Positions 38,356-62,096 of a DNA stretch of 64,000 bases are shown piece by piece; the stretch's first letter is position 1, and each line of letters begins with the position of its first letter. The stretch is from an uncultured Caulobacteraceae bacterium (GTDB lineage: Bacteria; Pseudomonadota; Alphaproteobacteria; Caulobacterales; Caulobacteraceae), in contig CAIXWN010000091.1 of the NCBI GenBank assembly GCA_903923135.1, forward strand, positions 91 through 64,090, read 5' to 3'. The notes beneath the pieces are model-generated. The model saw nothing but the letters and a program-made list of their open reading frames with translations. It searched no databases and was not told the DNA's origin. The translations under genes were made by a program, and so were the position numbers.

Positions 38356-38520
38356 GGAACGCCCTTAGGCAACCCAAATGGGTCCGCGGGCTTGTGGTCT
38401 GACGCCGGATCGGGGAAAGTCGGGCTTCAGGCGTGCGGAGTGCGGGGCTGCGCGTCCGGGACTGTCAGCGGCGGGTTTTGTCCGACCCGTGTTGCGGCCC
38501 TCGGAAAGTGAGAACAGACG

Positions 38521-39783
38521 ATGACGAAAGCCGCCAGTGGCGACAGTAAGAGCACCCTCTATTGTTCTTTCTGTGGAAAAAGCCAACACGAAGTCCGCAA
38601 GCTGATTGCCGGGCCGACCGTATTCATCTGCGATGAATGCGTCGAACTGTGCATGGATATCATCCGCGAAGAGCATAAACTCACCTTCGTCAAGTCGAAG
38701 GACGGCGTGCCGACGCCTCGTGAGATTCGCGATGTGCTCGATGACTATGTCATCGGGCAGGAGCACGCCAAGAAGGTGCTCTCGGTGGCGGTTCACAACC
38801 ACTACAAGCGTCTCAATCACGCCCAGAAGAACAACGACGTTGAACTGGCCAAGTCGAACATCCTGCTGGTCGGTCCCACCGGCGTGGGCAAGACCCTGCT
38901 GGCCCAGACCCTGGCCCGAATCATCGACGTGCCCTTCACCATGGCCGACGCGACCACGCTCACCGAAGCGGGCTATGTCGGCGAGGATGTCGAGAACATC
39001 ATCCTCAAACTGCTTCAGGCGGCTGACTATAATGTGGAGCGAGCCCAACGTGGGATCGTCTACATCGACGAGGTCGACAAGATCAGCCGCAAGTCTGACA
39101 ACCCCTCCATCACCCGCGACGTGTCGGGGGAGGGCGTGCAGCAGGCGCTCCTGAAGATCATGGAAGGCACCGTGGCCTCCGTACCGCCGCAGGGCGGGCG
39201 CAAGCATCCGCAACAGGAGTTCCTGCAGGTCGACACCACCAACATGCTGTTCATCTGCGGCGGCGCCTTCGCGGGTCTGGAGAAGATCATCTCCAGCCGC
39301 GGCAAGGGCACGTCCATCGGCTTTTCGGCCAAGGTTTCGGATCCCGATGACCGGCGAACCGGAGAGGTGCTTCGCCAGGTCGAGCCCGACGATCTGCAGC
39401 GGTTCGGCCTGATCCCGGAATTCATCGGCCGCCTGCCGGTCATCGCCACCCTGGACGACCTTGATGAGGTGGCGCTGGTCAAGATTCTCACCGAGCCGAA
39501 GAACGCCCTGGTCAAACAGTACCAACGCCTTTTCGAGATGGAGAACGTCGGCCTTTCGTTCACCGACGACGCCCTGCGGGCGGTCGCCCGCAAGGCCATC
39601 CTGCGCAAGACCGGCGCCCGGGGCCTGCGGTCGATCCTCGAAGGGATTCTCCTGGAGACCATGTTCGACCTGCCAACGCTGCAGGGCGTCGAAGAGGTGG
39701 TGGTCAACACCGAAGTCGTCGAGGGGCGTGGCCAGCCGTTGATGATCTACGCCGAGAAGAAGACGGGCGCGGCCTCGGCCTGA
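38521..39783 (+). CDS. clpX: ATP-dependent Clp protease ATP-binding subunit ClpX
   Basis: 420 aa. Contains the zinc-binding N-domain [18 protein letters not shown] and Walker A GPTGVGKT. Confidence 0.97.
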
Positions 39784-40109
39784 TTCGGCGGCCCCGCCGC
39801 CTGTCCCTCGCCGTCCCGCCGGTTGGGGGGTTCCCGCTGAAATTCGCCTGCCGAACAGGCAAGGCTGCTCGCCGGACGTGCGTTTCCGCACGCTGGGCCG
39901 ATGGAGCCTGAAATGTCTCCTGCGACCCTGTCACCGTGGACTGACATTTTCTAAACTCGTTGCGTCAAAATCTTTGGAATTCCGCGCCCTGTGGCTTCCA
40001 ATTTCGCTCGGACCGGCGTTAAATCCCCGCTAATTGTAACGAACGCCGCCAGGGTGGGCCGGCGTTCTCGCGCGACAATGCGTGGACGATCAACGAGGGA
40101 CCGCCAAAA

Positions 40110-43100
40110 ATGTCTTCTATCGCTGCCAAACCGACTCACCGTCGTGCGTCTCTGCTCGGCACGTCCGCCCACTTTGCCGCGAGCCTGCTGGCCGGCGCGG
40201 GCGCTTTGGCCGTCGGTTCCTTCTCGCCCAGTGTCGTGCTCGGCGCGCCCACCAACTGCGGCGCGACCCACGGGCTGATCGCCTGCCCGGCGGGAACCTA
40301 CACCTCGGGCATTCTGATCACCGGCGCCAGCGCGCCCACCAGCTTCCAGCTGCAGAACGACACCATCACCAACACCGCCGCGGGGGCGGGCGCGAACGGC
40401 GTCACCCTGTTCGACAACGGCTCGGGCCAGAATCTGACCGTCCAGTTCTTCGACCTGTCCAACCTTGGCGTGCCGCTCCCGCCGACGACGGTCGACGGCA
40501 CCGGCAAGCCCCTGGGCAACGGCATCTCCGTCCACTCGACTGGCGGTGATGTGGCGGTCAACACCTTCGACCTGAACTCCTTCTACGTCCCGGCTGACGT
40601 CCATAACACCATCACCGGCGCCAACGGCATCCGGTCGGCCACGGTCGGTACGGGCACGAACACCGTCACCATCGGCGCCGACACGATCACCTCGACCGGC
40701 GCCAACGTCTCCTATGCGGCGGTGCAGACCCTGGCCGGCGACGGCGCGACAACCGTCACGATCGCCAAGGGCGGGGTGCTCAACAGTTCCGGTGGATCCT
40801 ATGACATCCTTTCCCGGTCCACGACCGGCTCGATCACCATCAACAACGACGGCGCCTCCACCCATGGGGGTATTTCGGCCGGCACCGGCGGCGCGGGCGA
40901 TGTGAACGTCACGATCGGTGTCGATGGCACGGCCGTCTCCGCGCTTACCGGCGGCGGCGGTGTCGCTGACGCGGCGATCGGCACGTCTGCGGTGGACGGC
41001 GTGACCACGGTGGATATCAGCGGCGCGGTCACGGCCACGGGCGACGGCTATGGCGTATCGTCCGCCAGTACGACGGGCGACATCGGCATCACCACTCATA
41101 CGGGCGGCGTCATTCAGTCGAAGTCGAACGGCATTGACGCCTCGACGGCCAGCGGCGCGATTACTGTCCTCACCGGCGATACGGTGGGAACCAGCGGTGC
41201 GGCGGTTGGCGGCGACGGTATCCATGCCGCCGTGACCAGCGGCGCGGCGACCAGCGACGTCAATGTGACGGTCGGCGCCAATCTCTACGCCACCGGCGCG
41301 GGCGTGAACGCCTCCAACGCCGGCGGCGGCGCCAGCACGGTCAGCATCAGCGACGGCGTGGCCGTTGCGGCCGGCACGGTGGGCGTTTCGTCCTCGACCG
41401 CGGGCGCCGGTACGGCCAGCATCACCACGGGCTCCGGCGTCTCCATCGATCCGGACAATATCGGCCTGCAGGCGTCTTCCGCGGGCCAGGCTATCGTCAC
41501 CACCGGCGCCAACAACACCATCACCATCGACGACAACATCGACGGCGTGGTGGACAGCACCAACACCGGCATCCAGTCCTACAGCACCGCCGCCTCGGGC
41601 GCGCAGTCCGCCCAGGTGGTGGTCGGGGCCAACAACACCATTTCGATCAGCAACACGGCCGGCCATGACGTGGACGGCGCCTTCGGCATCGACGCACGGA
41701 ACAGCGGAGCCGGAACGGGCGGGGTCGATATCGGCGTCGCCGACGGTCTGAATCTCACCATCACCCAGGGTGACAATACCGTTGGCATCCTTGGCGCCGA
41801 TTTCAGCAACGGCGATGTGAACATCCACACCGGCACAGGGTCGATCACCATCACCGGGGGCAACGGGGTGGACGTCGCCGGCAACGTCAGTCCCACAGTC
41901 GGCATCTTCGGTGATGGCCTCGGCGGCGGCGGGGTGACCATCGACACGGCGCTCGACATCAATGTGTCGAACGGCGGCAGCCTCGGCACTGTCGGAATCC
42001 GCGCCCAGGCCGCGGGCGATGTCAATGTCACGTCCGGCGGAACGGTCGTGTCGGCTCATGGCGTCGGTCTCTATGCATTCAGCGCGGTCGGCGTGGTGAA
42101 CGTCACCAACACCGGCTCGGTGACGGCCAATGCGGGCACCGGCGGGGATGGCATCATCGCGTCCTCCGGAACCGGCGATGTCCATGTGAACGGAAGCGGC
42201 TCGATCACCGTCGCCACCGGCGCCGGCGCGGGCATCAGTGCGACCTCGGGTTCGGGGAACATCTTCGTCGGTGACTCGGGCGGCGGCTATTCGGGCGCCA
42301 TCGATCCGCAGAACGGCGGCATCGGCATAGACGCCTCGTCTGCGGGCAACGTCAGCGTCGTCACGGCGGCCGGCGGCACGATCAGCAGCGGCGCGTCCAC
42401 CGGTATCAAGGCCGCCTCGACGGGCGGCGATGTGACCGTCACCCAGGGCGGTGCGATCGGCGTCGGCGGCGGCCAGGTCTCTGGCGTCGGCATCGTCGCC
42501 TCGATCAACAACGCCGGCGGCGCTGGCGTCGTCACGGTCAACGGCAACGCCAACATCGGCGCCGTCGGGGATGGCGTCGACGCCACCACCAATGGCCTGG
42601 GCGCCGTCAATGTGAACTACGGCGCGGCCGACGGCGCCGCCCTGACTCTCACGTCGGGCGCCATCGGCGTCAACGCCACCCAGACCAATGGCGCCAGCAC
42701 GGCTGATGTCACCGTCCAGGTCGGTAACGCCAGCGGTGCGACCCTGATCAGCGCGTCGACTGTCGGCGTCTCGGCCTCGAACGCCGGAACCGGCGCGGCC
42801 AGCATCACCACCGGCGACAATGTCACCATCGATCCGGACAACATCGGCCTGCAGGCCGCTTCAGCCGGCCACGCCATCGTCACCACCGGCGCCAACAACT
42901 CGATCACCATCGACGACAACATCGTCCCCGGCGTGGACAGCCTGAACACCGGCATCCAGTCCTACAGCACCGCCGCCTCGGGCGCGCAGTCCGCCCAGGT
43001 GGTGGTCGGCGCCAACAACACGATCCTCATCAGCAACACGGCCGGGCCGAATGTGGACGGCGCGATCGGCATCGACGCCCGGAATCTGTCCGGCGGGACG

Positions 43101-46100
43101 GGCGGGGTCGACATCGGCGTGGCCGACGGCCTCAGCCTCACCATCACCCAGGCCGACAATGCGGGCGGAATCGTCGGCCTCGCCGCCGGCGACGTGAACA
43201 TCCACACCGGGACGGGATCGATCACCATCACCGGTGGCAACGGCGTCGACGTCGCCGGCAATCTTTCCAATACGTTCGGCATTGTCGGCCAGTCGGTTGG
43301 CGGCGGTACGGTGACGATCAACACCGGCCTCGATATCAACGTCGCCAACGGCGGCGCCCTTCAGACGGCCGGCGTTGCGGCGTTCACCTCGGGCGACATC
43401 AATCTCACCTCCTCCGGCACGGTGGTGTCGGGTCAAGGGTCCGGCCTCCTCGCCTCCGGCGGCGCGGGCGTCGTCAATGTCGTCAACACAGGCGCGGTGA
43501 CCGGCAACGCCGGCGGCTACGGCGGCGATGGCATCAATGCGACCTCCACCACGGGCGAAGTCCACGTGAACGGATCCGGGTCCGTCACGGTCGCCTCCGG
43601 CGCCGGTAACGGCATCAACGCGACCTCGACCTCGGGCAATGTCCTCGTCGGTGATTCCGGCTTCGGCTATTCGGGCGCCATCGATCCGCAGGGCGGCGGC
43701 ATCGGCGTCAACGCCACCACCTCGGGCAATGTCAGCGTCGCCACCACCGCCGGCGGCACGATCAGTGGCGGCGCCTCCATCGGCATCAACGCGGTGACGA
43801 CGGGCGGCGCCAGCGATGTCATCGTCCTGCAGGACGGCGCCATCGGCGTCGGCGGCCAGGTCTCCGGCGTCGGCATCAATGCGGCGATCAACAACGCCGC
43901 CGGCGTCGGGACGGTCACCGTCACCGGCGACGCCAACATCAATGCCGCGGGCGACGGCATCGACGCCACGACCAACGGCAACGGCCCGGTCAACGTCAAT
44001 TACGGCACGGCCGGGGTCGGCACGGAGACGATCACCTCGGGCGCCATCGGCGTCAACGCCACCGAAACCAACCCGGCGGCCACCAGCAACGTCACCGTCA
44101 CCCTTGGCAACGCCGCCACGGGCACCGTCGTGCACGCCAGCAATATCGGCGTCGAAGGCGCCAACGCCGGCTCCGGCGCGGCGACCTATCTCTCGGGCGG
44201 CAATGTCACCATCGATCCCGACAACTACGCGGTCGAGATGCAGTCGGCGACGGGCCTGGCGTCCATCACGACGGGCGCGAACGACAGCTACACGGTCGAC
44301 GACAACATCGTCGCCGGTAACGACGCCAACAACATCGCCCTCTACGCCCATTCCGGCGCGGCCAGCGGCCTGAACACCGTCGTCACCCTGGCCGGGGCCA
44401 ACACCATCCTCGTCACCGACGGCGCGGACGGCAACGCCGAGGGCGGCACGGGCATCGCGGCGCTGAACACCGGCAACGGCACGGGCGGCGTCCTGGTCGA
44501 CACGACCGGCGACGCCGGCCTGAGCCTCACGGTCAATGGCGACAACGCCGTCGGCATCCACGCGGCGACCAACTACGGCGCCACGGGTTCGGGCAATGTC
44601 ACCGTCAACACGGGCGCCGGATCGATCACCATCAACGCCGGCGCCGCGCCCCAGGCGCCCACGGGCAATTACGGCGGCAGCGCCGGCATCCTGGCCACCA
44701 CCAACGGCGGCGACGTCACGGTGAGCAACGTCGCGGCGATCAGTGTCTCCAACGGGGGCGGCGGCCTGACGGTCGGCATCCTCGGCGTGACCAATGGCGC
44801 GGGCGACATCAGCATCGATCACGTCGGTACGGCGAACATCACCTCGAACAACGGCAACGGCATCGAGGCCGACGCCGTCAACGGCGAGATCTCGATCCGG
44901 CAACTCGGCGCCAGCACGATCACGACGACCAATGGCGACGGCATCCAGGCCAACATCACCGGAAACGCCGGGGCCGGTAACACCTCGATCGACATTTCGC
45001 AGAATGATGAAGACGCCCACATCAACTCCACGGGCGGCGACGGCATCCGGGCCAGCGTCGTCGGCGGGGGGAGTGGCAACATCTTCGTCGGCGGCGGGGC
45101 CAACGGCACCATCAACGGCTTCATCACCGCCTCGGGCGACGGCATCAGCGCCACGACCGACGGCCACGGCAACATTGTCGTCTCCACCAACACCCTGGTC
45201 ACCCAGTCCGGCGGCTTCGGCATCCTTGCGCAGAACACGGCGGGATCCGGCTTCGGCAATGTCACCGTGCTCGACAACGGCGACAGCACCACCACCACCG
45301 GCGCCGGCGCTGATGGCATCTTCGCCACCACCAACGGCGACGGCAATGTCCTGGTCCATGTGACGGGCGACCAGATCACCACCCAGGGCGCCCTGGCGGA
45401 CGGCGTTCGCGCCACCAACACCGGCGGCTCCAACGGCGACGTGACCGTGATCACCGATGGGGTGGCAGGCATCAACGCCACCGGCTATGGCATCTTCGCC
45501 ACCAGCAACTCCAACGACAACGTCTCGGTAACGACGGGGGCGAACACCACGATCGCCGCCGGTCTCGATGGCATCCGCGCCACGATCACCAGCGTCAACG
45601 GTCAGGACGTGCTGGTCACGCACGATGGCGCCATCACGGCGGCGGGCGGTGACGGCATCTTCGTCACCAGCGTCAGCAACGGCAATGTCGGCGTCCAGGC
45701 GGGCGCCACCAGCTCGATCGTCGCCACGGGCGAGGGCATCCACGCCTACGCCCTCGGCGGCACGGTCGTGAACTCCAGTGACGTGACCGTTGTCGGGGCC
45801 GGCTCGATCACCTCCGGCGGCGCCGGCATCGACGCGCAGATCACCCAGGCGGCCAACGCCGGCGTGGTCTCGGTCACCCAGACCGGGACGGTCACGGCCG
45901 GCGGCGACGGCATTCTCGCCACGACGGCGGGCCAGGGCGCGGTCAATGTCACCACCGGCGCCGGCGCCATCACCGGCGGCTTCGGCGGCGGCGTGGGCTC
46001 GGGCGACGGCATCAACGCCTCGACCCAGGGCGGCGCCCTGACGATCATCACCGGAACCGGCGCCATCACCGGCGATCCGGGCATCGTCGCCAACATCAAC

Positions 46101-52100: not shown

Positions 52101-55100
52101 TCCGACGGCATCGCCGGCGTGGCCACGGCCAATGGCGACGTCAACATCGCCTCGACCGGCTTCGTGACCGGCGGCTACATCGGCATCTTCGGTGGGTCGG
52201 CGTTCACCCAGGGCGGCGACAATCCGGCCACGATCGGCGGTACGGTCAATATCGGCACGGCCCTGAAGCCGATCACCGGCGCGGTCGGCGATCAGAACAC
52301 CACCTTCGGTGCGATCGTCGCCACCAACACCACCGGCGCGATCAACGTGTTCACCGCCGCCTCGGCCAGCATGGCGGCCGACGGCAACGCCCGCTACGGC
52401 ATCGTCGCCTATGACGTCGGCGCCGCGGCGCCGATCACCATCGGCAACGCCGCCCAGATCGGCTCCACCAACGGCGCCACCGGCGGAGGGGTGAACTCGG
52501 CGGGCATCGATGCGGTGCAGACCGGAACCCTCGGCGGCATCAACCTCACCAACTCGGGCAACATCTACGTCGACAACGTCCAGGGTGTTGACGGCTTCGG
52601 CTTCACGGCCGGCATCCTGGCCTTCAACGCCGGCGCCGGCGCGATCAACGTCACCAACAGCGGATCGATCGATCCGCCTGCGGTCGGCATCTTCGCCAGC
52701 GGCCTGGGCCAGGTGAATGTGGTCAACAGCGGCTCGATCCTCGCCCTGGGAAGCGGCATCTTCGCCAACTCCTTCGGCGGCGCCGCGGTGACGGTCAGCA
52801 ACACCGCCCCCAGCGTCCACGGCATCGCGGGCAACGGCATCCAGGCGGTGTCCGCGGGCGCCGGCGATGTCACGGTCGCCTCTCTCGGCGGCACGGTTAC
52901 CGGCGGCTTCGACGACATTCTCGCCACCTCTCTGGGCGGTGTGGTCACGGTCGGTACGGTGGCGGCTCCGATCACCAGCGTGCTGGGCGACGCCTCGACC
53001 AGCCACGCCGGGATCGAAACCAGCAACACGACCGGCGCGACGATCATCAACACCGCCGCTTCGGCGACGATCAACGATCCGAACGCCCTCTACGGGATCG
53101 AGGCCAACTCGACCTCCGGAGCGATCACCATCAACACCGCCAGCGCCATCGGTTCGGGCTCGGGCGGCGTCAATGGCGCGGGTGTCTGGGCCAACTCCAC
53201 CGGCGCCAACACCACGGGCATCGCCGTCACCAACACCGGCGCGATCTTCGTCGATCCGGTCACGTCTCTGGGTATCGAAGGCACCAGCTACGGCGTCTAT
53301 GCGGTCAACGGCGGAACCGGCGCGGTCAGCGTCAGCAACTCCGGAGCGATCGCCAACCCGGGCGTGGGCATCCTGGCCTACGGCGCCGGCAACGCGTCGA
53401 TCGCCAACCACGCCAATGTCAGCGCCATCTTCAGCGCCCTGCACGCCGAATCCACGGCGGCCGGTGTGGTGACCGTGACCAGCGACAACGGCTCGGTGCT
53501 GACCGCGTCCCTCGGCGACGGGGTCGACGCCATCGCTGACGGCGGCGGCTCGGTCGGGGTCACCCTGACCAACACCACGGTCAACGCCGGCGCCGTGGGC
53601 GTCTACAGCCACGCCGGGGCGGGCGGCTCCGAGGTGGTCAACACCAGCGGCGGCGTCATCACGGCCGGATCCTACGGCATCGCGTCCGACGGTCTGGGTT
53701 CGATCTCGGTGACCAACTCCGACACCATCACCGGCCCCACCATCGGTGGTATCGGCGTGGGCGGCGCCTCGACCTCCGGTCCGATCACGGTCAGCAACAG
53801 CGGCGACATGTCGACGCTCAAGACGGCCATCTACGGGATCGGCGCCAAGGACGCGACCGGCGCGATCAGCATCTCCAACTCCGCCCAGATCGGGGCGGCG
53901 GGCGCCGGCAACGGGGTCAAGACCTTCGGCATCGGAGCCCAGTCCATCGGCGCCAACACCACCGGCGTCACGGTCACCAACACCGGCGCCATCTATGTGC
54001 AGGGCGTACCGACGGCTCCCTACATCTCTTCGGGTGTCGTGGCGCTCAATGCCGGGACCGGGGCGGTGCTCGTCAACAACTCCGGCGCAGTGCAGTCGGG
54101 AGCCTACGGCCTCTACGCTTCGGGCGCCGGCAATGTGACGGTCAATGACAACGCCTCAGTCGTCGGCGCCACCGGCATTCATGCCGACAGCTCCGGCGCG
54201 GCCTCGACCACCACGGTGGATGTCTACTCGCTTTACGGCGTCCCGGCTCCGGTTACGGGCGCAGCCGGAAACGGCATCGAGGCCTACGGTACGGGTGGCG
54301 GCAACGTCACCGTTGACACCTCGGCTGGCGGAACGATCTCCGGTTCTAACATCGGCATCGCGACGTCGGTCACCGGCGGAACGGGCGCGACGGTGGTTAA
54401 CACCCTCACCGGCGCTTCTACGACGGGTATTGGCGTGATCGGCGGGAGCGGCGACGGCATCCAGTCGCTCTCCAGCGGCTCGGGTCCGATCACCATCACG
54501 GCCGGCAACGTCCACGGCGGCGACAACGGCGTGTTCGCCAGCGCCAACTCCGGCGCCGTCGCGGTCACCACCCAGGGCAATGTCTTCGGCGGAACCGCGA
54601 CCGGTATCACGGCGGAGTCCTCCACGGGCAACGTCACCGTGACGACCAACAACCAGACCGGCGTCCGGAACGTCGTTTACGGGGCGGCCGAAGGCATCTT
54701 CGCCAGCTCCGGCGGTGCGGCCTCGACCACCGTGACCTCCAACAGCAACGTTGACGGCGGCACTGACGCCGGCATCGTGGCGGTCTCCGGGTCCGGTAAC
54801 CTCACCGTGGTCGTCAACGGCAACGTCAACACCGACACGCCGCCGGCCCCGGTCACCGGAGAAGGCATCCGCACCGACAGCGGCGGCCCGGCCTCGATCA
54901 CCATCAGCAACAACTCCACGGTTCTGGGCGCCGGAAACGCCAACCAGAACTCGGTGTTCTCCAAGAACAACACCGGCGGGGCCGTGGTGGACATCACCAC
55001 GGCGCTCGGCTCGACCACCGTGCTCACCAACAACGGTGTGGTGCAGTCGAACCGCGCGGCGCCGGGCGAGCTGAACGATCTGGCGATCCAGGCGGTCAAC

Positions 55101-56921
55101 GGCTCGGTGAACGTGACCAACAACAACGTGCTCAACGGCCGGATCGACTTCTCCGGTCTGGCGGGCGGCGAGGGCAGTTCGGCGACGTTCATCAACACCG
55201 GGACCTGGCAGGTCACCGGCGCCAACTACGCCGGCGGCCAGGATGGCTTCGGAACGACGCCTGTCCTGCTGGTCAACGACAACCTCATCTCCACGGTGGG
55301 GACCACGTCCATCGACTTCGGTGTCGATGGCGCGGCGGCCGGCGCGGCGCACGCCGCGGCGGACCAGGTCGACAACTTCGGCCTGATCCGGGTCGGCGGA
55401 TCCGGTGCGGTGGGTGCGGGCGCCACGCTCAACCTCACCCACCTGGCGACGCTCAACAACAGCGGCACGATCAACCTGATGAACGGCGTGCCGAACGACC
55501 GCTTCCTGAACACCGGCGCGGTCTACTCCGGCCTCGGCGCCCATCCGTTCCTGCAACTGGACGCGTCAATCTCGATCCCGGCGCTCAGGGCCGACGTCCT
55601 GACGGTCGGTTCGGTGACGGCGGTCGGCGGAACGGTGACCATCGCTTCGTCCGTGGCGCCGCTCAGCACCTATACGGATCAGGCGACCAAGACCTACATC
55701 CAGGTCAACGACACCACCGTCGGCCAGACGGGCGTCTACAATCCCGCCGGGATCGTGGTGGTGTCCGGACCGGGCGGCGTGCCGGTCGGGACATTCCAGA
55801 TCGACCAGACCTCGACCTATTACAATGTCGGCGGGACCAATAAGTTCGGCGGCGCGACCAACGTCATCGACAAGCCCGGGCTGTTCTTCACCTATCTCGA
55901 CTACGACGGCACCCATGCCCTGCTGGTCAGCGAGCCCAAGGTTGAAGCGCTGCAACTGGCCCGCCTCGGCGGGGCGGCGACGGGCATCTGGTACACGACG
56001 ACCCAGACCTGGTTCGATCGCGGCGCGGATATCCGGGACGACTTCAATGGCCGGGCGACGGGCCAGAAGGCCGGCGTGTGGCTGAAGGTCGTCGGCGACT
56101 GGACCCGCCGGGACCGTACCGTCAGCTTCAAGCCGTTCAGCCAGACGCTCAGCTACGACGTCAGCTACAATCAGAGCACCGGCGGCCTCATCGGCGGCGT
56201 CGATCTGCTGAATGTCCAGAACAGCGACTCGGCCTGGACCGTCGGTCTTGAAGGGGGCGGCGTGACCTCGCACGTGCACTTCAACAAGTCGTCCAGCAGC
56301 TACAAGCTGGATGGCGGAGTGATCGGGGCCTACGCCACCTACCTGCACGGCGGCCTGTTCGTGGATGGCGCGGTCAACGCCAACCTGCTGACCCTGTCGG
56401 TGGATCAACCCGGTCTGGGCACCACGCCCACCCCGTGGACGTCCTCCACCGGCGTCAACTCGGTCGGTGGCCAGGTCGAGGCGGGGTACGAGGTGCCGGT
56501 CGGCGGCAAGGTGTTCATCGAGCCCGTCGGTTCGCTGTCCTACGTCAACACCGCCTTCAGCAACGTGCCGTTCCAGAACGCCACGACGCAGATCACCAAC
56601 GACAACAGCTTCCGCGGCAGCGTGGGCCTGCGGGTCGGCAACAGCGCCGACTTCCAGTCCTACCGTCTGAAGTTCGCCCTGACGGCCAGGGTGTGGGATG
56701 AGTTCGAGGCCAACACCCGCACGACCCTTACCACCACGGCGCCGTCGCTCTCGACGTTCACCAACAATGACAACCTCAGAGGGGTGTTCGGCGAAGTGTC
56801 GGGCCAGATGACCCTGTTCACGATGGGCGACAAGCTGTCGGCCTTCTGGAACGGTGGTGTGAAGTTCAACAAGTCCTACACCGAGGGTCAGGCCACTCTG
56901 GGCGTCACCTACGCCTGGTAG
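40110..56921 (+). CDS. giant autotransporter-like (type Va) outer-membrane protein, 5603 aa
   Basis: A single 16,812-nt ORF. The N-terminus is signal-like (HRRASLLGTSAHFAASLLAGAGALAVG). The passenger is over 5000 aa, Gly/Thr/Ala/Val/Ser/Asn-rich and repetitive. The last 280-300 aa or so resemble an autotransporter beta-barrel and end ...ATLGVTYAW, with a terminal aromatic residue. An SD (GAGGGA) lies upstream. Confidence 0.85.
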   Translation: MSSIAAKPTHRRASLLGTSAHFAASLLAGAGALAVGSFSPSVVLGAPTNCGATHGLIACPAGTYTSGILITGASAPTSFQLQNDTITNTAAGAGANGVTLFDNGSGQNLTVQFFDLSNLGVPLPPTTVDGTGKPLGNGISVHSTGGDVAVNTFDLNSFYVPADVHNTITGANGIRSATVGTGTNTVTIGADTITSTGANVSYAAVQTLAGDGATTVTIAKGGVLNSSGGSYDILSRSTTGSITINNDGASTHGGISAGTGGAGDVNVTIGVDGTAVSALTGGGGVADAAIGTSAVDGVTTVDISGAVTATGDGYGVSSASTTGDIGITTHTGGVIQSKSNGIDASTASGAITVLTGDTVGTSGAAVGGDGIHAAVTSGAATSDVNVTVGANLYATGAGVNASNAGGGASTVSISDGVAVAAGTVGVSSSTAGAGTASITTGSGVSIDPDNIGLQASSAGQAIVTTGANNTITIDDNIDGVVDSTNTGIQSYSTAASGAQSAQVVVGANNTISISNTAGHDVDGAFGIDARNSGAGTGGVDIGVADGLNLTITQGDNTVGILGADFSNGDVNIHTGTGSITITGGNGVDVAGNVSPTVGIFGDGLGGGGVTIDTALDINVSNGGSLGTVGIRAQAAGDVNVTSGGTVVSAHGVGLYAFSAVGVVNVTNTGSVTANAGTGGDGIIASSGTGDVHVNGSGSITVATGAGAGISATSGSGNIFVGDSGGGYSGAIDPQNGGIGIDASSAGNVSVVTAAGGTISSGASTGIKAASTGGDVTVTQGGAIGVGGGQVSGVGIVASINNAGGAGVVTVNGNANIGAVGDGVDATTNGLGAVNVNYGAADGAALTLTSGAIGVNATQTNGASTADVTVQVGNASGATLISASTVGVSASNAGTGAASITTGDNVTIDPDNIGLQAASAGHAIVTTGANNSITIDDNIVPGVDSLNTGIQSYSTAASGAQSAQVVVGANNTILISNTAGPNVDGAIGIDARNLSGGTGGVDIGVADGLSLTITQADNAGGIVGLAAGDVNIHTGTGSITITGGNGVDVAGNLSNTFGIVGQSVGGGTVTINTGLDINVANGGALQTAGVAAFTSGDINLTSSGTVVSGQGSGLLASGGAGVVNVVNTGAVTGNAGGYGGDGINATSTTGEVHVNGSGSVTVASGAGNGINATSTSGNVLVGDSGFGYSGAIDPQGGGIGVNATTSGNVSVATTAGGTISGGASIGINAVTTGGASDVIVLQDGAIGVGGQVSGVGINAAINNAAGVGTVTVTGDANINAAGDGIDATTNGNGPVNVNYGTAGVGTETITSGAIGVNATETNPAATSNVTVTLGNAATGTVVHASNIGVEGANAGSGAATYLSGGNVTIDPDNYAVEMQSATGLASITTGANDSYTVDDNIVAGNDANNIALYAHSGAASGLNTVVTLAGANTILVTDGADGNAEGGTGIAALNTGNGTGGVLVDTTGDAGLSLTVNGDNAVGIHAATNYGATGSGNVTVNTGAGSITINAGAAPQAPTGNYGGSAGILATTNGGDVTVSNVAAISVSNGGGGLTVGILGVTNGAGDISIDHVGTANITSNNGNGIEADAVNGEISIRQLGASTITTTNGDGIQANITGNAGAGNTSIDISQNDEDAHINSTGGDGIRASVVGGGSGNIFVGGGANGTINGFITASGDGISATTDGHGNIVVSTNTLVTQSGGFGILAQNTAGSGFGNVTVLDNGDSTTTTGAGADGIFATTNGDGNVLVHVTGDQITTQGALADGVRATNTGGSNGDVTVITDGVAGINATGYGIFATSNSNDNVSVTTGANTTIAAGLDGIRATITSVNGQDVLVTHDGAITAAGGDGIFVTSVSNGNVGVQAGATSSIVATGEGIHAYALGGTVVNSSDVTVVGAGSITSGGAGIDAQITQAANAGVVSVTQTGTVTAGGDGILATTAGQGAVNVTTGAGAITGGFGGGVGSGDGINASTQGGALTIITGTGAITGDPGIVANINGGAGTLTVTTNGSVTGLFGDGINATITGGGTGDLVISDKGVGAITGAGATSNGITASTDGGGNAKVTTVATVDVAGGASGIVLSSTGGSGDVTVDTAGSVSGAAGDGVNATAINDGTVRVIARGADSGSANGITTSSADGTNTVILTGTGSATSTGVGDGVHATTSGFGDITVTTLAGSSASGSGAGGDGIFASTGTSVASINVSLGGTATTNTPASGFGISADALGGNVSVQVTSSGSVLDGGIRAATNNFGNVTVQTLGSVTNTAGDGIDALVESGVDQVTAKTVTASGDGIHAVSSGAGGIVTVTAKDVTSTTSGSGVFASTTDGGGGPVQVNTYGTITGSATAHTAGIYAVALNNSPVTITASGPVSGDAGVAGVSGGGNVNITTTGTVQASGTTPNSSFGVIGATSGSGTVTINSSGDVTAASTDGVLGFSTGNGLIQVTSGKVTSGGGGVIADSTGGGTVQVTTNGAVVATGAAPDTWGVLALTNGGSGSATVTTHSTVEGAYDGAGAIVVSGGGNATIDTTGGLVTAHGSSGGGHNAWGVLGLAQSGNVQVTTGAVTADGAPLAAVGGLSSTGNVAIQTNGQVSSNGIGVLGSTSSAGSTGSILITTNAGVGAAGVGIGAFAAGASNVTVDANDTVVGFTGIATSTHGSGVTNVTALGTVTGFSGDGVNATTTGSGSITVSTAEVDAANVAINTHSGGGSSIQVTANGPLTGQVGVSAVTTGGANAGSVTVHTLSTVTASNGLGVNAQAGTGGSTVRTDGAVSGVGGINASSSGSGATSVTANGSVDGTTGAGGTGINATSGSGNVTVLANSTTSGTTGVSTTTSGSGVTAITTLGLVTGTTGDGVDATNFGGAGAIGVTTGDVTGALDGILVQAIGGGAPITVAANGAINAGGGTSGGIVVNSTGGSGNVLITTGSTVTGGTGVVANVGGAGGVNIDTTGGLVTSTWAGGVGVGASTVNGKINETTGAVTAANVGVYALSSGGGGNINIETTGAVDAGGAGIVADNHTGAGSIIVTADSTVTSASSIAVDVSAGTGGATVTTDGAVSGVGGIFATSTGAGATSVTANSSVLGSGAVGILATSDTGNVTVLANSTTTGTTGVATATGGSGVTNITTVGLVTGSAGDGVDATNAGGAGAINITTGAVTGALDGIFADAAGGGAPITIATSGDVNGGGASTGVLAASTGGSGSVKITTGGAVTAGSGVVATVGGAGGVNADTTGGLVTATSGTGVGVGASTVNGAITLTTGAVSAVNGTARGVIAQSTGGGGNIVIETTGAVNAAGVGIGADNHTGAGSIVVTADSTVTSTGATAIDVTAGTGGATVTTDGAVSGVGGIFATSAGAGATSVTANSSVVGSSDVGILATSDTGNVTVLANSTTTGSTGVYTSTGGTGVTSITTLGLVTGSSFDGIDALTTGTGGITIATGAVTATNDGANGIFAQNTSGGAGDIRITTNGQIQGDVSGITADNHLGTGAINVHTLGAVSALTGVGVSATAGTGGATVVTDGVVNGGSGPGGGINATATGAGPVTVAANGAVNGGAGVGINAGTASGSILVTTGSTVIGSEGVVTAVSTGSGTTGVTTTAGLVTGVTGDGIHSTTGGSGAISITTGAVTATAAGANGVFAQSTTGAANIGITTEGVIQGAASGVNADNSAGAGSINVHSVSAVSATTGVGITATAGTGGVIVTTDGTVTGGSGPGGGINATAAGAGSVQVAANAAVDGVAGTGIHAASGTGNIQVLANSTVAGTNGVTSSTGGAGTTLITTVGQVTATAGDGVNASGGAGQITITTNGVNASVNGIFAHGVTSPITITNNGAVNGATGDGIGAVTGGAGAIQVNVQGPVSGAVGVYTAQTGTGVTNIVDGVAANTITGTVGDGVQSVNGAGTGTVNFGAGTGSRIQAAVFGATNGVDISGAGLMNVYDGANVTGAAGWGITAQSTASSVNIDVVGGVVQGTSVAALNGGGILGLTNAAGPNAVNITSTDTVIGIGQQSDGIAGVATANGDVNIASTGFVTGGYIGIFGGSAFTQGGDNPATIGGTVNIGTALKPITGAVGDQNTTFGAIVATNTTGAINVFTAASASMAADGNARYGIVAYDVGAAAPITIGNAAQIGSTNGATGGGVNSAGIDAVQTGTLGGINLTNSGNIYVDNVQGVDGFGFTAGILAFNAGAGAINVTNSGSIDPPAVGIFASGLGQVNVVNSGSILALGSGIFANSFGGAAVTVSNTAPSVHGIAGNGIQAVSAGAGDVTVASLGGTVTGGFDDILATSLGGVVTVGTVAAPITSVLGDASTSHAGIETSNTTGATIINTAASATINDPNALYGIEANSTSGAITINTASAIGSGSGGVNGAGVWANSTGANTTGIAVTNTGAIFVDPVTSLGIEGTSYGVYAVNGGTGAVSVSNSGAIANPGVGILAYGAGNASIANHANVSAIFSALHAESTAAGVVTVTSDNGSVLTASLGDGVDAIADGGGSVGVTLTNTTVNAGAVGVYSHAGAGGSEVVNTSGGVITAGSYGIASDGLGSISVTNSDTITGPTIGGIGVGGASTSGPITVSNSGDMSTLKTAIYGIGAKDATGAISISNSAQIGAAGAGNGVKTFGIGAQSIGANTTGVTVTNTGAIYVQGVPTAPYISSGVVALNAGTGAVLVNNSGAVQSGAYGLYASGAGNVTVNDNASVVGATGIHADSSGAASTTTVDVYSLYGVPAPVTGAAGNGIEAYGTGGGNVTVDTSAGGTISGSNIGIATSVTGGTGATVVNTLTGASTTGIGVIGGSGDGIQSLSSGSGPITITAGNVHGGDNGVFASANSGAVAVTTQGNVFGGTATGITAESSTGNVTVTTNNQTGVRNVVYGAAEGIFASSGGAASTTVTSNSNVDGGTDAGIVAVSGSGNLTVVVNGNVNTDTPPAPVTGEGIRTDSGGPASITISNNSTVLGAGNANQNSVFSKNNTGGAVVDITTALGSTTVLTNNGVVQSNRAAPGELNDLAIQAVNGSVNVTNNNVLNGRIDFSGLAGGEGSSATFINTGTWQVTGANYAGGQDGFGTTPVLLVNDNLISTVGTTSIDFGVDGAAAGAAHAAADQVDNFGLIRVGGSGAVGAGATLNLTHLATLNNSGTINLMNGVPNDRFLNTGAVYSGLGAHPFLQLDASISIPALRADVLTVGSVTAVGGTVTIASSVAPLSTYTDQATKTYIQVNDTTVGQTGVYNPAGIVVVSGPGGVPVGTFQIDQTSTYYNVGGTNKFGGATNVIDKPGLFFTYLDYDGTHALLVSEPKVEALQLARLGGAATGIWYTTTQTWFDRGADIRDDFNGRATGQKAGVWLKVVGDWTRRDRTVSFKPFSQTLSYDVSYNQSTGGLIGGVDLLNVQNSDSAWTVGLEGGGVTSHVHFNKSSSSYKLDGGVIGAYATYLHGGLFVDGAVNANLLTLSVDQPGLGTTPTPWTSSTGVNSVGGQVEAGYEVPVGGKVFIEPVGSLSYVNTAFSNVPFQNATTQITNDNSFRGSVGLRVGNSADFQSYRLKFALTARVWDEFEANTRTTLTTTAPSLSTFTNNDNLRGVFGEVSGQMTLFTMGDKLSAFWNGGVKFNKSYTEGQATLGVTYAW
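41290..44780 (+). repeat. intragenic long tandem repeat A: 1383-nt (461-aa) unit, about 2.5 copies
   Basis: The landmark codons GAT CC(G/C) GAC AA (IDPDN) occur at 41448, 42831 and 44214, exactly 1383 nt apart. A stretch of about 70 nt (ATCCAGTCCTACAGCACCGCCGCCTCGGGCGCGCAGTCCGCCCAGGTGGTGGTCGG) is identical at about 41570 and about 42953. Confidence 0.85.
48318..51650 (+). repeat. intragenic long tandem repeat B: 852-nt (284-aa) unit, two full copies followed by shorter 528- and 552-nt derivatives
   Basis: Unit boundaries (..TADSTVTS.. / ..HTLSTVTAS..) lie at 48318, 49170 and 50022. Shortened units start at about 50550 and 51102. The stretch GGCGCGGTCAGCGGCGTCGGCGGCAT recurs near 48400, 49255 and 50105. 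Confidence 0.8.
52250..54250 (+). repeat. intragenic diverged repeat C: three units of 227-249 aa
   Basis: The landmark ..TN(T/S)G(A/N)I(F/Y)V.. codons ATCTACGTC, ATCTTCGTC and ATCTATGTG occur at 52563, 53244 and 53991, spacings of 681 and 747 nt. The flanking protein sequence is alignable by eye. Confidence 0.6.
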
Positions 56922-56982
56922 ACCTGCGCAACGCGGATCCGGCGGCTTCCCAGAGAGGTCGCCGGGACCACACAGAGACCCG

Positions 56983-57018
56983 GACCCAGGGCGGCGACGC
57001 CCTGGGTCTTTGTCGTTT
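56983..57018 (+). terminator. Rho-independent terminator of the giant ORF
   Basis: GACCCAGGGC-GGCGAC-GCCCTGGGTC (10-bp perfect stem) followed by TTTGTCGTTT, 62 nt after the stop. Confidence 0.75.
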
Positions 57019-57168
57019 CAGGACGGGGGTCGCAGGCCTGATGGGGACGGGGCCAAGGGTTGACGCCGACCAGATGGAAACAGCTGCTCGGCGATAATTG
57101 AGCCTAGAAACATAGGGTTAGAGCCATTCTGATCCGATCGGATAGTTTCAATCAGATCGAAAAGGAGT

Positions 57169-57612
57169 CTAGGCGACGATCCTGGCGGTCTGAGCCTTCA
57201 GGGCGCTGACCAGGTCTGCGGGCGCCAGCCGGATCTGCAGGCCGCGCTGGCCTCCGTTGACGAACACCAGGTCCTCGCCGAGGGCTGAGGCTTCAACGAC
57301 GGTCGGCGCAGGCTTCTTCTGCCCGAACGGGCTGATCCCGCCGACCCGATAGCCGGTCAGCCGTTCGGCGTCCGCCGGCGGCGCCATTCGCGCGGACTTG
57401 CCGCCGAACAGCGCCGCGAGGGCCTTCATGCTGACCTCGCGGTCGGAAGGAACGGCGACACATACCGGCCTGTCGTCGACCAGGGCCATCAGCGTCTTGA
57501 GAACCCTTTGGGGGTGTTCTCCGAGGGCCAGGGCTGCCTGCAGGCCGACGCGGTCCGCCGAGGGGTCATAGACATAGGTGTGCAGGGTGTGGACGACGCC
57601 GGCGCGGTTCAC
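57169..57612 (-). CDS. ybaK: Cys-tRNA(Pro)/Cys-tRNA(Cys) deacylase YbaK-like
   Basis: 147 aa. Alignable by eye with E. coli YbaK (HTYVYDP.., YRVGGISPFGQKK versus YLVGGISPLGQKK). GTG start. Confidence 0.8.
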   Translation of the reverse strand: MNRAGVVHTLHTYVYDPSADRVGLQAALALGEHPQRVLKTLMALVDDRPVCVAVPSDREVSMKALAALFGGKSARMAPPADAERLTGYRVGGISPFGQKKPAPTVVEASALGEDLVFVNGGQRGLQIRLAPADLVSALKAQTARIVA

Positions 57613-57810
57613 GGCCAGCGTCGCGGGGGTGCTTCTGGCCAGAGCCGGGCCCTTCCGTGATTATGGCCGTGGCGGCCGCTCTCATCGATGTGACGGCGAA
57701 ACGTCGACAAAATCTTACCCTTTGCCGGGGCATCGTCTATCCCGGACGTCACAGGCCCGGCCGGCGCCGGGCGCGACGACTGGCAGCCAGGGCGTGGGGT
57801 GCGCGTGACC

Positions 57811-59313
57811 ATGAGCGAAAACCATCTGTTCGACCGTCTGCTTGGGGCCGGGGATCCGGTGTCGACGGCTATCGAGACCGAGGGCCGCCGGCTCAGCTAT
57901 GCGGATCTCGAGCGGGAGACCGGCCGCTACGCCAACGCCCTCGTCACCCTTGGGGTCCGGCCCGGGGACCGGGTGGCCGTCCAGGTGGAGAAGTCGGCGG
58001 CCAATCTCATGCTCTATCTGGCGACGGTCCGCGCCGGGGCGATCTTCCTGCCGCTCAACACCGCCTATACCCTCAACGAGCTGGCCTATTTCATCAACGA
58101 CGCCGAGCCCGCGCTGATCGTCTGCGATCCGGCGGCGCGCAAGGCGCTCGGCCCCCTGGCGGGAGACGTGCCGGTGGAAACCCTGGACCGGGCCGGGCAG
58201 GGGTCCCTTGCGGCGTTCGCCGAGATCCAGCCCACCCGCTTCGAGACGGTGGAACGCTCCGCCGACGACCTGGCCGCCATCTGCTACACCTCGGGCACCA
58301 CCGGTCGCTCAAAGGGCGCCATGCTGACGCACCGGGCGCTGGCGTCAAACGCCGCGACCCTGGTGGACCTGTGGGGGTTCACCGCCGCCGACGTGCTCAT
58401 CCACGCCCTGCCGACCTATCACGTGCACGGCCTGTTCGTGGCCACCAACGTCCTGCTGATGGCCGGCGGCTCGATCATCCTGCAGCCCAAGTTCGATCCG
58501 GCGTCGGTGATCGCCGCCATGCCCCGCGCCACGGCCCTGATGGGCATTCCCACCTTCTACACCCGCCTCCTCGCCCACGAGGGCCTCAGCGACGAGGCGG
58601 TGGCGCCCATGCGGCTGTTCATCAGCGGCTCGGCTCCCCTCCTGGCCCAGACCCACCGGGACTGGACCGAACGGACCGGCAAACCGATCCTCGAGCGTTA
58701 CGGCATGACCGAGACCGGCATGAACACCTCCAATCCCTATGAGGGCGACCGGGTCGCCGGGTCGGTCGGGCTCCCCCTGCCTGACGTCGATCTGCGCATC
58801 GTCGACGAGCAAGGCGGAGCAGAGGTTCCCGACGGCCAGATCGGCGTCATCGAGGTCAGGGGCCCCAACGTCTGCGCCGGCTACTGGCGCAACCGGGAAA
58901 AGACCGACGAGGCGTTCCGGCCCGACGGGTTCTTCATCACCGGGGATCTGGGCGTGCGGGATGAGCGCGGCTACGTCTCCATCGTCGGCCGGGGCAAGGA
59001 CCTTATCATCACCGGCGGCCTGAACGTCTACCCGAAGGAGGTGGAGGGCGAGATCGACGCGCTTCCCGGGGTCGTTGAATCGGCGGTCGTCGGCCTGCCG
59101 CACGCCGACTTCGGCGAGGCGGTGACGGCGGTCGTCGCCGTCGGCGCCCGGACCGACCTGACAGAAGCGTCTGTGCTGGAGGCCCTGGCGCCGCGACTGG
59201 CGCGGTTCAAGCAGCCCAAGCGGGTGCTCTTCGTCGAGGACCTGCCGCGCAACGCCATGGGCAAGGTGCAGAAGGCGCTTCTGCGGGAGACGCACCGGGC
59301 CCTCTACGCCTGA
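57811..59313 (+). CDS. matB: malonate--CoA ligase-like AMP-dependent synthetase
   Basis: MSENHLFDRL..., VAVQVEKSAANLMLYLATVRAGAIFLPLNTAYTLNELAYFINDAEP and YTSGTTGRSKGA closely resemble rhizobial MatB. An alternative GTG start lies at 57799. Confidence 0.8.
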   Translation: MSENHLFDRLLGAGDPVSTAIETEGRRLSYADLERETGRYANALVTLGVRPGDRVAVQVEKSAANLMLYLATVRAGAIFLPLNTAYTLNELAYFINDAEPALIVCDPAARKALGPLAGDVPVETLDRAGQGSLAAFAEIQPTRFETVERSADDLAAICYTSGTTGRSKGAMLTHRALASNAATLVDLWGFTAADVLIHALPTYHVHGLFVATNVLLMAGGSIILQPKFDPASVIAAMPRATALMGIPTFYTRLLAHEGLSDEAVAPMRLFISGSAPLLAQTHRDWTERTGKPILERYGMTETGMNTSNPYEGDRVAGSVGLPLPDVDLRIVDEQGGAEVPDGQIGVIEVRGPNVCAGYWRNREKTDEAFRPDGFFITGDLGVRDERGYVSIVGRGKDLIITGGLNVYPKEVEGEIDALPGVVESAVVGLPHADFGEAVTAVVAVGARTDLTEASVLEALAPRLARFKQPKRVLFVEDLPRNAMGKVQKALLRETHRALYA

Positions 59314-59348
59314 GCGGGTGGGGTTGGGGCGGTCTCGCGCGCCTCTCG

Positions 59349-59378
59349 CTTGAACTGGGCGAACGAGCCTCCACATAG
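59349..59378 (+). promoter_or_regulatory. possible sigma32-type promoter upstream of lon (CTTGAA-N16-CCACATAG)
   Basis: CTTGAAC at 59349-59355 and CCACATAG at 59371-59378, about 140 nt upstream of the lon ATG. Confidence 0.35.
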
Positions 59379-59519
59379 GTGTGGAACAAGGCCGCCCGGA
59401 TGGCGGGCGGACACGGCGACTCGGGGCAATCTGACCGAGACGGGCCGGCGAGCCACCCCAAGTCCATCAGACCGCCTGGCGCGTATAGAGTCCCGCGCCG
59501 GCCAGGAGTGAAAGTACCT

Positions 59520-61919
<2,400 letters not shown>

Positions 61920-62019: not shown

Positions 62020-62096
62020 GGGCGGCTAGCTCAGCTGGTTAGAGCGTCTCGTTTACACCGAGAAGGTCGGGGGTTCGAACCCCTCGCCGCCCACCA
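62020..62096 (+). tRNA. tRNA-Val (anticodon TAC)
   Basis: Acceptor stem GGGCGGC/GCCGCCC, D-arm GCTCAGCTGGTTAGAGC, anticodon stem-loop TCTCG-TTTACAC-CGAGA, T-arm GGGGGTTCGAACCCCTC and 3' CCA. Confidence 0.9.

Follow-up and report, generated by a model that had tools for sequence, protein, structure and literature searches.

A 16.8-kb gene for a predicted type Va autotransporter with a beta-solenoid passenger, inserted between clpX and matB in the genome of an uncultured Caulobacteraceae bacterium

The DNA analysed here (the window) is a stretch of 64,000 nucleotides from an uncultured Caulobacteraceae bacterium (NCBI GenBank assembly GCA_903923135.1, contig CAIXWN010000091.1), and its largest gene, at 40110..56921 on the + strand, encodes a protein of 5603 residues. 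By the family and the predicted fold of its C-terminal domain, this protein is a giant type Va (classical, monomeric) autotransporter. Taken as a whole, the reading that we consider probable, with good though not full confidence, is that the protein is exported by Sec and assembled by the beta-barrel assembly machinery (BAM), that its passenger is a long, acidic and nearly uncharged solenoid rod with a disulfide-looped tip, that it probably serves as a fibre for adhesion or aggregation, and that its gene was inserted together with ybaK between clpX and matB without leaving marks of the event.

In the mechanism that we propose, a long, arginine-rich Sec-type signal peptide would carry the 521-kDa precursor over the inner membrane. 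The C-terminal ~285 residues would form a 12-stranded outer-membrane barrel, presumably BAM-assembled, with an alpha-helical linker sitting in its pore, and the passenger of ~5230 residues would be threaded out to fold extracellularly as a continuous right-handed three-faced beta-solenoid of ~190-200 rungs. Once folded, the passenger would be a surface-retained rod, ~65-95 nm long, acidic and nearly without charge, whose tip is looped by a disulfide; its likeliest role would be to reach far from the cell as a fibre in adhesion, aggregation or the formation of biofilms. Its extreme length would come from nested tandem duplication of multi-rung modules, kept by purifying selection. At the chromosomal level, the autotransporter gene and ybaK (~18 kb) would have entered an ancestral tig-clpP-cicA-clpX-matB-lon string of this Caulobacteraceae lineage, so that matB would have lost its coupling to clpX and lon would retain a sigma-32-type promoter of its own.

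The gene product and its translocator domain

The open reading frame (ORF) starts with ATG and runs through 5603 codons with zero internal stops; the product has a mass of 521 kDa and an isoelectric point of 4.05. Eight residues account for 86% of it (G 20%, T 14%, A 13%, V 11%, S 9%, N 7%, I 6.5% and D 4.7%), K and R together for 1.25%, and the only cysteines are residues 50 and 59. An earlier note, made from the DNA letters, had described a single 16.8-kb frame of 5603 codons, a charge-poor product rich in G/T/A/V/S/N/I/D and cysteines confined to the N-terminal ~60 residues, as well as a signal-like N-terminus and a C-terminal barrel ending in W. These descriptions hold: the frame is borne out by the ORF call, by uniform GC content at third codon positions (GC3) and by a second assembly, and both ends of the protein have the proposed character, as described below.

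In the extended signal peptide (aa 1-45, 40110..40244, + strand), recognized from its hydropathy profile and its conservation in the family, the n-region is basic (K7, R11, R12), the hydrophobic core spans aa 13-38, and cleavage is predicted to fall between V-L-G and A. The same layout, ..RRR.SLL.SSS...ALA followed past the cleavage site by A..C.....C, is kept in the family, with RRR-x-SLL...ALA|A..C conserved in P0015, P0016, P0021, P0024, P0035 and P0041, and on hydropathy and conservation together we count the N-terminus as a Sec signal peptide. The two cysteines, C50 and C59, lie where the mature passenger begins (40257..40286, + strand). Because the pair is conserved family-wide at this position, a disulfide loop at the tip of the passenger is likely.

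At the other end of the protein, aa 5318-5603 (56061..56918, + strand) form the translocator beta-barrel. When the last 320 residues were scanned alone, PF03797, the Pfam autotransporter beta-domain against which the earlier note had proposed to check the C-terminus, matched aa 5323-5578 with 91.8-92.1 bits (cut-off 26), and the alignment takes in model positions 1-250 of 255. Scans of 1600-2000-aa pieces of the protein against Pfam and NCBIfam gave no match; the domain was missed there because of the composition-bias correction, and it was found by scanning the last 320-450 residues alone. An AlphaFold2 (AF2) model of aa 5001-5603 (12 homologues; predicted local distance difference test score, pLDDT, 82.8; predicted template-modelling score, pTM, 0.78) shows a beta-rich end of the passenger, a 28-residue helix and then ~12 long antiparallel strands that make up a complete monomeric barrel. 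The helix, aa 5285-5312 (55962..56045, + strand; residues 285-312 of model m6d8ec2f814f7), is predicted to pass along the pore of the barrel, and the fold matches of the model include pre-cleavage EspP, EstA and NalP. In a Foldseek search of the C-terminal model against the PDB, the top matches were all type Va translocators (E 1e-16 to 1e-10, target template-modelling score (TM) <=0.84), among them EstA (E=2.6e-16), AaaA, EspP (target TM 0.76-0.84), Hbp, BrkA (0.78-0.83), AIDA-I and NalP. A phmmer search of the last 450 residues against PDB sequences gave no match.

Several features that define the class are seen together, the 12-stranded single-chain barrel with its pore helix being a property of the predicted structure. 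The C-terminus is aromatic (...GVTYAW here, ...YQW in relatives), and the AF2 model and a rung profile described below place a beta-helical passenger in the stretch that leads from the signal peptide to the barrel domain. Neither the YadA-like four-strand anchor of type Vc nor the two-partner secretion domain with TpsB of type Vb was found, PF03797 being the sole family match, and there is no TpsB or Omp85 gene among the neighbouring genes.

The passenger, its repeats and its likely role

For the passenger (aa 46-5276, 40245..55937, + strand), a three-faced beta-solenoid is predicted. An AF2 model of aa 2753-3321 (pLDDT 90.6, pTM 0.90) is all-beta with three strands per turn, and cutting it by strand triplets gave 22 rungs in 569 residues, each of 24-29 aa and in perfect register. 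A hidden Markov model (HMM) built from these 22 rungs converges on the consensus ITVTTNGAVTAGGDGINATSGGAG. It detected 133 units at an independent E-value below 1, and 161 overall, between aa 127 and 4958 at a median spacing of 27 aa, and the units are near-continuous across aa 1500-4000.

A beta-helix rises by 0.48 nm per rung. At this value the detected rungs alone would correspond to 64-77 nm, and the entire passenger of 5230 residues, if all of it is solenoid, to ~95 nm; scaling from the autotransporter Fap2, in which 2905 residues span 47 nm, gives ~85 nm. Together these figures suggest a rod of ~65-95 nm.

Several observations weigh against this reading. The AF2 model of the passenger spans 569 of its ~5230 residues. 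About 2000 passenger residues have no match to the rung HMM, among them aa 1-126, aa 147-326 and recurring stretches of 80-120 aa in the repeat module A described below; HMM-negative stretches include, for example, aa 408-512, 896-976, 1319-1437, 4029-4156 and 4532-4652, and such stretches could be divergent rungs or non-solenoid excursions. A Foldseek search of the passenger model against the PDB returned nothing significant (best E 0.33, TM 0.1-0.3). Lastly, besides PF03797 the final 450 residues have no Pfam match at E<=10, so that an autochaperone domain (e.g. PF18883) was not detected. This domain is common in type Va autotransporters and is not obligatory, and the conserved beta-rich junction between passenger and barrel may be a divergent equivalent of it.

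The passenger matches listed by Foldseek were all beta-helices, including Vag8, Fap2, pertactin and Ag43, and are of qualitative value only; because they fall below significance, homology to any solved passenger was not counted. The earlier note had proposed to check the protein against pertactin-like and PATR-type repeat models. In ten slices of 500-600 aa, no Pfam repeat family (PATR PF12951, pertactin PF03212, AIDA-type or haemagglutinin) matched at E<=1, and longer pieces of the passenger gave no match to Pfam or NCBIfam repeat models.

The role of the rod is less firmly placed than its fold. The protein might be a true autotransporter whose passenger is something other than an adhesin, that is, a released protein, a protective or spacer coat, a rod that binds ice, minerals or polysaccharides, or the carrier of a small cryptic N-terminal effector, and we give this alternative a minor but appreciable chance. 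It draws on the lack of a rung-HMM match in aa 1-326 and in several stretches of 80-180 aa, on the lack of an adhesin-type Pfam domain, and on the fold-search list, which holds tailspikes, pectate lyases, epimerases and an ice-binding protein besides adhesins. On the other side, Pfam and NCBIfam gave no catalytic or toxin domain in any slice, and the composition is uniform, the N-terminal 400 residues included. Among type Va passengers of such great length, the ones studied best are the adhesins Fap2 and RadD of Fusobacterium nucleatum (PMC12397386). This alternative touches function alone and is compatible with the structural and secretion model; the adhesion or aggregation fibre stays our preferred role.

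Autocorrelation and self-comparison of the protein revealed a hierarchy of repeats, with a rung period of 25-27 aa (~26) and, above it, three modules. Module A (41376..45528, + strand) comprises three tandem copies of 461 aa, starting at nt 41376, 42759 and 44146. In module B (48366..50924, + strand) a 284-aa unit occurs three times in tandem, and 183-aa sub-modules continue from there to ~aa 3800; module C (52035..54209, + strand; aa ~3976-4700) comprises 3-4 older tandem copies of ~240 aa that are 40-47% identical. The first two copies of module A share 73% protein identity, with a ratio of nonsynonymous to synonymous substitution (Ka/Ks) of 0.35 and a synonymous divergence (dS) of 0.57; together with the first two copies of module B, the ranges are 73-74% identity, dS ~0.57-0.59 and Ka/Ks 0.34-0.35. 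Within module B, Ka/Ks is 0.34 for copies 1 and 2 and 0.49 for copies 2 and 3, and older copy pairs are saturated. Ka/Ks of 0.34-0.49 at a dS of ~0.6 points to purifying selection and therefore argues against a silent relic. The protein thus gained its length through old nested tandem duplications of 461, 284 and ~240 aa, upon which purifying selection then acted.

The signals that flank the gene are in part recognizable. The non-coding region upstream of it (39807..40109, + strand) is richer in AT at 39925-40024 and carries, at 40095-40100, a Shine-Dalgarno-like GAGGGA; a ribosome-binding-site-like GAGGG(A/G)C before the ATG is conserved in three family members. This element is all that the upstream regions of the three share, no common promoter motif having been found there, and a consensus scan of the region in the window gave neither a sigma-70 site nor a terminator; promoter function probably resides within 39807..40109. 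A strong intrinsic-terminator-like hairpin follows at 56982..57019 (+ strand; hairpin proper 56982-57009), 61 nt past the stop, with a 12-bp stem of which 9 pairs are G-C and a T-rich tail.

That the gene is a decaying or silent relic, open merely since stops are rare in repeats of 69% GC that are rich in G, A and T codons, and that it makes no functional protein, is very improbable. Long frames do arise easily in such composition, as the antisense strand demonstrates with stop-free runs of up to 1733 codons, and the missing promoter consensus fits the same idea. The sense frame is, however, 3.2 times the longest antisense run, and it retains an intact signal peptide and cysteine pair at one end and, at the other, an intact linker helix, a PF03797 barrel of full length and the aromatic last residue. 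The ribosome-binding site is conserved, a terminator is present, GC3 is 0.90, and the Ka/Ks values of the module copies, at their dS, speak of long-term purifying selection on the protein.

The antisense runs themselves are three ORFs on the - strand facing the autotransporter gene, at 39951-42185, 42861-48062 and 50286-53612 (744, 1733 and 1108 aa). Their GC content is ~0.84-0.91 at first codon positions (GC1) and ~0.59 at third positions, and a GC1 of ~0.91 identifies them as mirror-frame artefacts; they were therefore rejected as genes. For comparison, GC3 of the + frame is 0.87-0.92 (about 0.90) across all 1.5-kb slices, and 0.83-0.90 in neighbouring genes. Gene callers could mis-annotate these antisense ORFs.

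An even smaller chance attaches to the idea that the length is a short-read artefact, with modules mis-joined or mis-counted, and that the real gene differs in length or is interrupted. Two facts speak on that side: every supporting assembly is a short-read metagenome assembly, and two other assemblies (contigs of ERZ1426530 and ERZ27313308) both end at window ~43524-43537, at aa 1142, inside the second 1383-nt macro-repeat. Against it stands a separately assembled scaffold, ENA ERZ18640064 scaffold_309 (L001 and L083), which reproduces window 28521-64000, including the full 16.8 kb of the gene, with 7 mismatches and 0 gaps. Copies of the macro-repeat are just 73-91% identical in DNA, there is no long exact repeat in the window, and both GC3 and the reading frame are uniform along the gene. 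In a third assembly the gene lies in two contig-end pieces of 1142 and 4465 aa, whose sum is about the same length. A fourth contig that also stops at aa 1142 (L002) is identical to the window through its final base and offers no other junction; the break is therefore a stop of the assembler within the macro-repeat and not an alternative structure, and an alternative junction at this point was rejected. Graph tangling by the rung motifs or strain heterogeneity could be the cause of the recurrent break. The ORF is real and intact.

The insertion between clpX and matB and the surrounding genes

In the window, 19,736 nt separate the clpX stop from the lon start. A survey of 80 alphaproteobacterial species loci retrieved with ClpX showed how unusual this is: lon lies within 800 nt of clpX in 66 of the 80 and at 0.9-2.2 kb in 4, no lon was present within 10 kb in 7, and 3 loci were too short. 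This supports the premise of the earlier note that clpX and lon are normally contiguous. Caulobacter sp. BE264, for example, is collinear with the window on both sides and reads tig-clpP-cicA-clpX-lon...nuoABC.

The extent of the insertion was resolved with the closest relatives, which were found through their MatB, ~80% identical. Four contigs (L088 and L089 from ENA; L090, a Caulobacteraceae metagenome-assembled genome, NCBI GCA_028290905.1; and a contig of JGI 3300047160) all read tig-clpP-(small ORF)-cicA-clpX-matB-lon; they count as three distinct relatives, L088 and L089 being one arrangement seen in two samples. The start of matB lies ~23 nt past the clpX stop in L088 and L090, and in the JGI contig one small GFA-family (PF04828) gene lies between the two genes, which shows that the clpX-matB spacer too varies within the lineage. 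L088 also shares with the window the upstream HlyD and ABC/C39 genes and the downstream lactamase-B, EthD, peptidyl-prolyl isomerase and nuo genes. Aligned with blastn, L088 and L090 follow the window at 75-85% nucleotide identity up to 39781 and 39806, and the alignments resume at 57825 and 57826; ybaK is missing at the homologous position in both. From this collinearity and the point of resumption it follows that matB is ancestral and that the lineage-specific insert, at 39807..57800 (right boundary approximate, to within tens of nt), measures ~18.0 kb and holds the autotransporter gene and ybaK only. Spacers of Caulobacter, Brevundimonas and others at the family level are too diverged to map the breakpoint, which could be placed only with L088 and L090.

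The account given in the earlier note changes accordingly. Its 19.7-kb insert, with matB included, gives way to one of ~18 kb that splits clpX from matB, a gene shared with the closest relatives, which lack the autotransporter gene and ybaK at this place. The disruption of the clpX-lon junction is indeed a derived insertion; it is not unique, as two Brevundimonas genomes carry other cargo there. The low-GC flanks pointed out in the note are real, with GC 0.50 at 39925-40024 and 0.46 at 57075-57199, but they are ordinary intergenic DNA and not island boundaries, and a third such patch lies at the 5' end of clpX (38500-38699).

The insert bears no trace of how it arrived. It holds no integrase, transposase or recombinase gene; the two junction regions share no k-mer of 11 nt or more, direct or inverted; GC3 of the insert equals that of the host; and the nearest tRNAs lie 4.9 and 4.2 kb beyond the boundaries. 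The segment does not qualify as a genomic island or mobile element.

These features would also suit the view that clpX-autotransporter-ybaK-matB-lon is the ancestral order of the clade and that the 18 kb disappeared from the relatives, for the segment lacks mobile-element marks at its flanks and its GC3, equal to that of host genes, gives no compositional sign of recent foreign origin; we nevertheless regard this view as highly implausible, since it needs three independent near-perfect deletions to leave matB ~23 nt, or one GFA gene, from clpX in three distinct relatives, the first ~23 nt past clpX in the window still resemble the spacer of L090, the outgroups Caulobacter sp. BE264, L013 and L005 read clpX-lon with no trace of the autotransporter, and the closest beta-domain relatives reside elsewhere (purEK-GGDEF-AraC, adk-rpsM, beside aldehyde dehydrogenase).

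Other Caulobacterales carry other genes at this junction. One Brevundimonas locus (L009:11066-12786) has an AraC-family gene between clpX and lon. In another (L018:11267-21266), genes for a GGDEF protein, a DEAD-box helicase, an impB-family protein and a DnaE-type polymerase follow clpX, with lon more than 10 kb away, and this cargo is likely an imuB/dnaE2 mutagenesis cassette. With matB, the AraC-family gene, the imuB/dnaE2-like cassette and the autotransporter gene in different lineages, the clpX-lon junction is seen to be a permissive site in Caulobacterales.

The homologous autotransporters have different surroundings. Those of the two longest relatives, P0015 (3306 aa, JGI 3300047160) and P0021 (2962 aa, L087:6564-16673), stand in the order rpsU-COQ9-purK-purE-GGDEF-AraC(divergent)-autotransporter, which suggests an AraC-type regulator and cyclic di-GMP signalling at the usual locus of the family; unlike at these loci, no AraC-type regulator lies beside the autotransporter gene in the window. 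P0001 adjoins aldehyde and acyl-CoA dehydrogenase genes. In L085:4866-13543 (ENA ERZ28573575 scaffold_5816) a homologous autotransporter fills the adk-rpsM gap of secY-adk-rpsM, another housekeeping string that is normally contiguous; it has at least 2890 aa, in a 1712-aa ORF with the family signal peptide, a scaffold gap of N and the 1180-aa P0007.

A bolder form of our reading would hold that the passenger is one unbroken single-chain beta-solenoid of ~190-200 rungs (~90 nm), longer than any other in its family and one of the longest predicted for any monomeric protein, that length itself is selected (e.g. for reach past an S-layer or capsule) and tuned by module duplication, and that the family may prefer short spacers of housekeeping operons with constitutive expression (clpX-matB, adk-rpsM). 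We consider this combination doubtful and put it forward as speculation. If it were true, the spacer preference would point to recurrent, integrase-independent acquisition and expression of giant adhesin genes.

The neighbouring genes named in the earlier note were all confirmed, proteins by NCBIfam and tRNAs by ARAGORN. To the left lie tig (35131-36681), clpP (ending at 37378), a HAD-IB (cicA-like) gene on the - strand (37675-38355) and clpX (38521..39783, + strand; NF003745, 681 bits), the left anchor of the insertion. To the right, ybaK (57169..57612, - strand; TIGR00011, 158.9 bits, above cut-off) encodes a Cys-tRNA(Pro) deacylase and is convergent with the autotransporter gene; it is followed by matB (57811..59313, + strand; NF005702, 786 bits), which encodes malonyl-CoA synthase, by lon (59520..61919, + strand; NF008053, 1150 bits) and by tRNA-Val (62020-62096). 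Upstream of lon, a sigma-32-like promoter motif, CTTGAAC-N14-CCACATA, is found at 59349..59377 (+ strand), and the motif also occurs upstream of lon in L003 and L013. Sigma-32-dependent lon expression and the clpP-cicA-clpX layout are documented in Caulobacter (PMC8119881), and judged by its sequence the motif may act as the lon promoter here.

Some further observations concern the surroundings. The convergent autotransporter and ybaK genes are separated, from the terminator of the former to the stop of the latter, by ~150 nt of AT-richer (GC ~0.46) non-coding DNA (57020-57168); an Rfam scan of 34-64 kb found two tRNAs only, with no match in this interval. The gap between clpP and cicA holds a small ORF (~37415-37678, - strand) with no Pfam match, which measures 87 aa in L001, 72 in L088, 101 in L090 and 85 in the JGI contig and appears to be a conserved partner of cicA. 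Further left, a gene for a 549-aa protein with tetratricopeptide repeats and a sulfotransferase domain (33121-34770, + strand) lies between a type I secretion pair, both on the - strand (HlyD 29410-30888; ABC/peptidase-C39 30840-33161), and tRNA-Leu. It is absent in L088, which has a 123-aa ORF instead, the alignment breaking between window 32989 and 34385, and is thus a second lineage-specific difference in the neighbourhood of the autotransporter. Window 1-29400 is ordinary chromosome, with AtuA and methylcrotonyl-CoA carboxylase-type genes, an acyl-CoA ligase, a PAS sensor, ccoNOP (cbb3 oxidase) with fixGHI, and an epimerase; no mobile-element or autotransporter accessory genes were found in it.

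Size in context and comparison with known systems

An exhaustive phmmer search with the last 450 residues against 1.84 billion cluster representatives found 911 relatives at E<=1e-3. The longest among the best 150 of these 911 have 3306, 2962, 2525, 2503 and 2490 aa, so that the protein of the window is 1.7 times the longest of these best 150 beta-domain relatives. A word-indexed search gave just 3 weak matches with a passenger segment and 12, mostly fragments, with the C-terminal 700 residues; full-length relatives surfaced only through the exhaustive search of representatives. Scanning metagenome contigs with the N-terminal 450 residues yielded no confirmed relative. A look-up of identical protein sequences recovered ClpX and Lon but not the giant protein, MatB or YbaK. 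The protein belongs to an uncharacterised alphaproteobacterial subfamily, and its rung repeat is in no Pfam family.

The earlier note had set the protein against classical autotransporters of 900-1800 aa. The claim of unusual size stands as far as its own subfamily goes; the comparison was too narrow, for BigE, with 10,429 aa, and Fap2 are known. What we describe is an exceptionally long protein of a known secretion class, of which larger examples, the fold and growth by repeats are already known, and in these respects a specialist would not be surprised. If expressed, it would be a monomeric beta-helix of ~0.5 MDa and ~65-95 nm that passes through a single 12-stranded barrel in a free-living Caulobacteraceae bacterium. 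It would then offer an extreme natural test case for the scaling limit of vectorial, C-to-N, folding-driven type Va secretion, together with a clean example of length evolution through nested module duplication.

The nearest known proteins are the complete relatives P0015, P0021 and P0016 (2490 aa), which have the architecture of the giant protein, and the gene in L085. All four are true homologues, 45-50% identical over the last 450 residues, and share the arginine-rich signal peptide, the cysteine pair after the cleavage site, a passenger rich in G/T/A/V/S/N with GDGI-A rungs, the conserved junction region and the aromatic terminus, which reads ...YQW in the three complete proteins. The duplications of modules A, B and C are peculiar to the protein of the window, and the relatives occupy genomic sites other than clpX-matB.

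With the classical beta-helical autotransporters pertactin, BrkA, Ag43, AIDA-I and EspP/Hbp, the protein shares the secretion architecture and, by prediction, the three-faced beta-helix of the passenger, and the folds of its barrel and linker match the solved structures of EspP, BrkA, Hbp, AIDA-I and NalP. It differs from them in a passenger that is 5-10 times longer and has extremely few charged residues, in the lack of Pfam matches to pertactin, PATR, AIDA-repeat or autochaperone models, and in having no protease or other globular head.

The betaproteobacterial autotransporter BigE, of 10,429 aa, arose by eight-fold replication of a passenger domain with internal beta-strand repeats and is placed in the BrkA-like passenger group and the EstA/BigE barrel group (Celik et al. 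2012, PMC3419190). By its published description it is like the protein of the window a giant of type Va that owes its size to replication of passenger modules, and it is about twice as long. Fap2 and RadD are likewise monomeric autotransporters with passengers of several thousand residues and, as predicted here, a long beta-helical rod. The Fap2 passenger (~400 kDa), secreted via a heterologous AIDA-I barrel, was imaged by cryo-electron microscopy and cryo-electron tomography as a rod of 45-50 nm, with 2905 residues in 47 nm (PMC12397386). Fap2 shows no detectable sequence homology to the protein of the window, its Foldseek match to the passenger model is not significant (E=1.0, TM ~0.2), and neither a "matchstick" tip nor a receptor-binding site is known in the protein of the window. 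It comes from a different phylum with a different lifestyle, and the passenger described here is ~1.8 times longer than that of Fap2.

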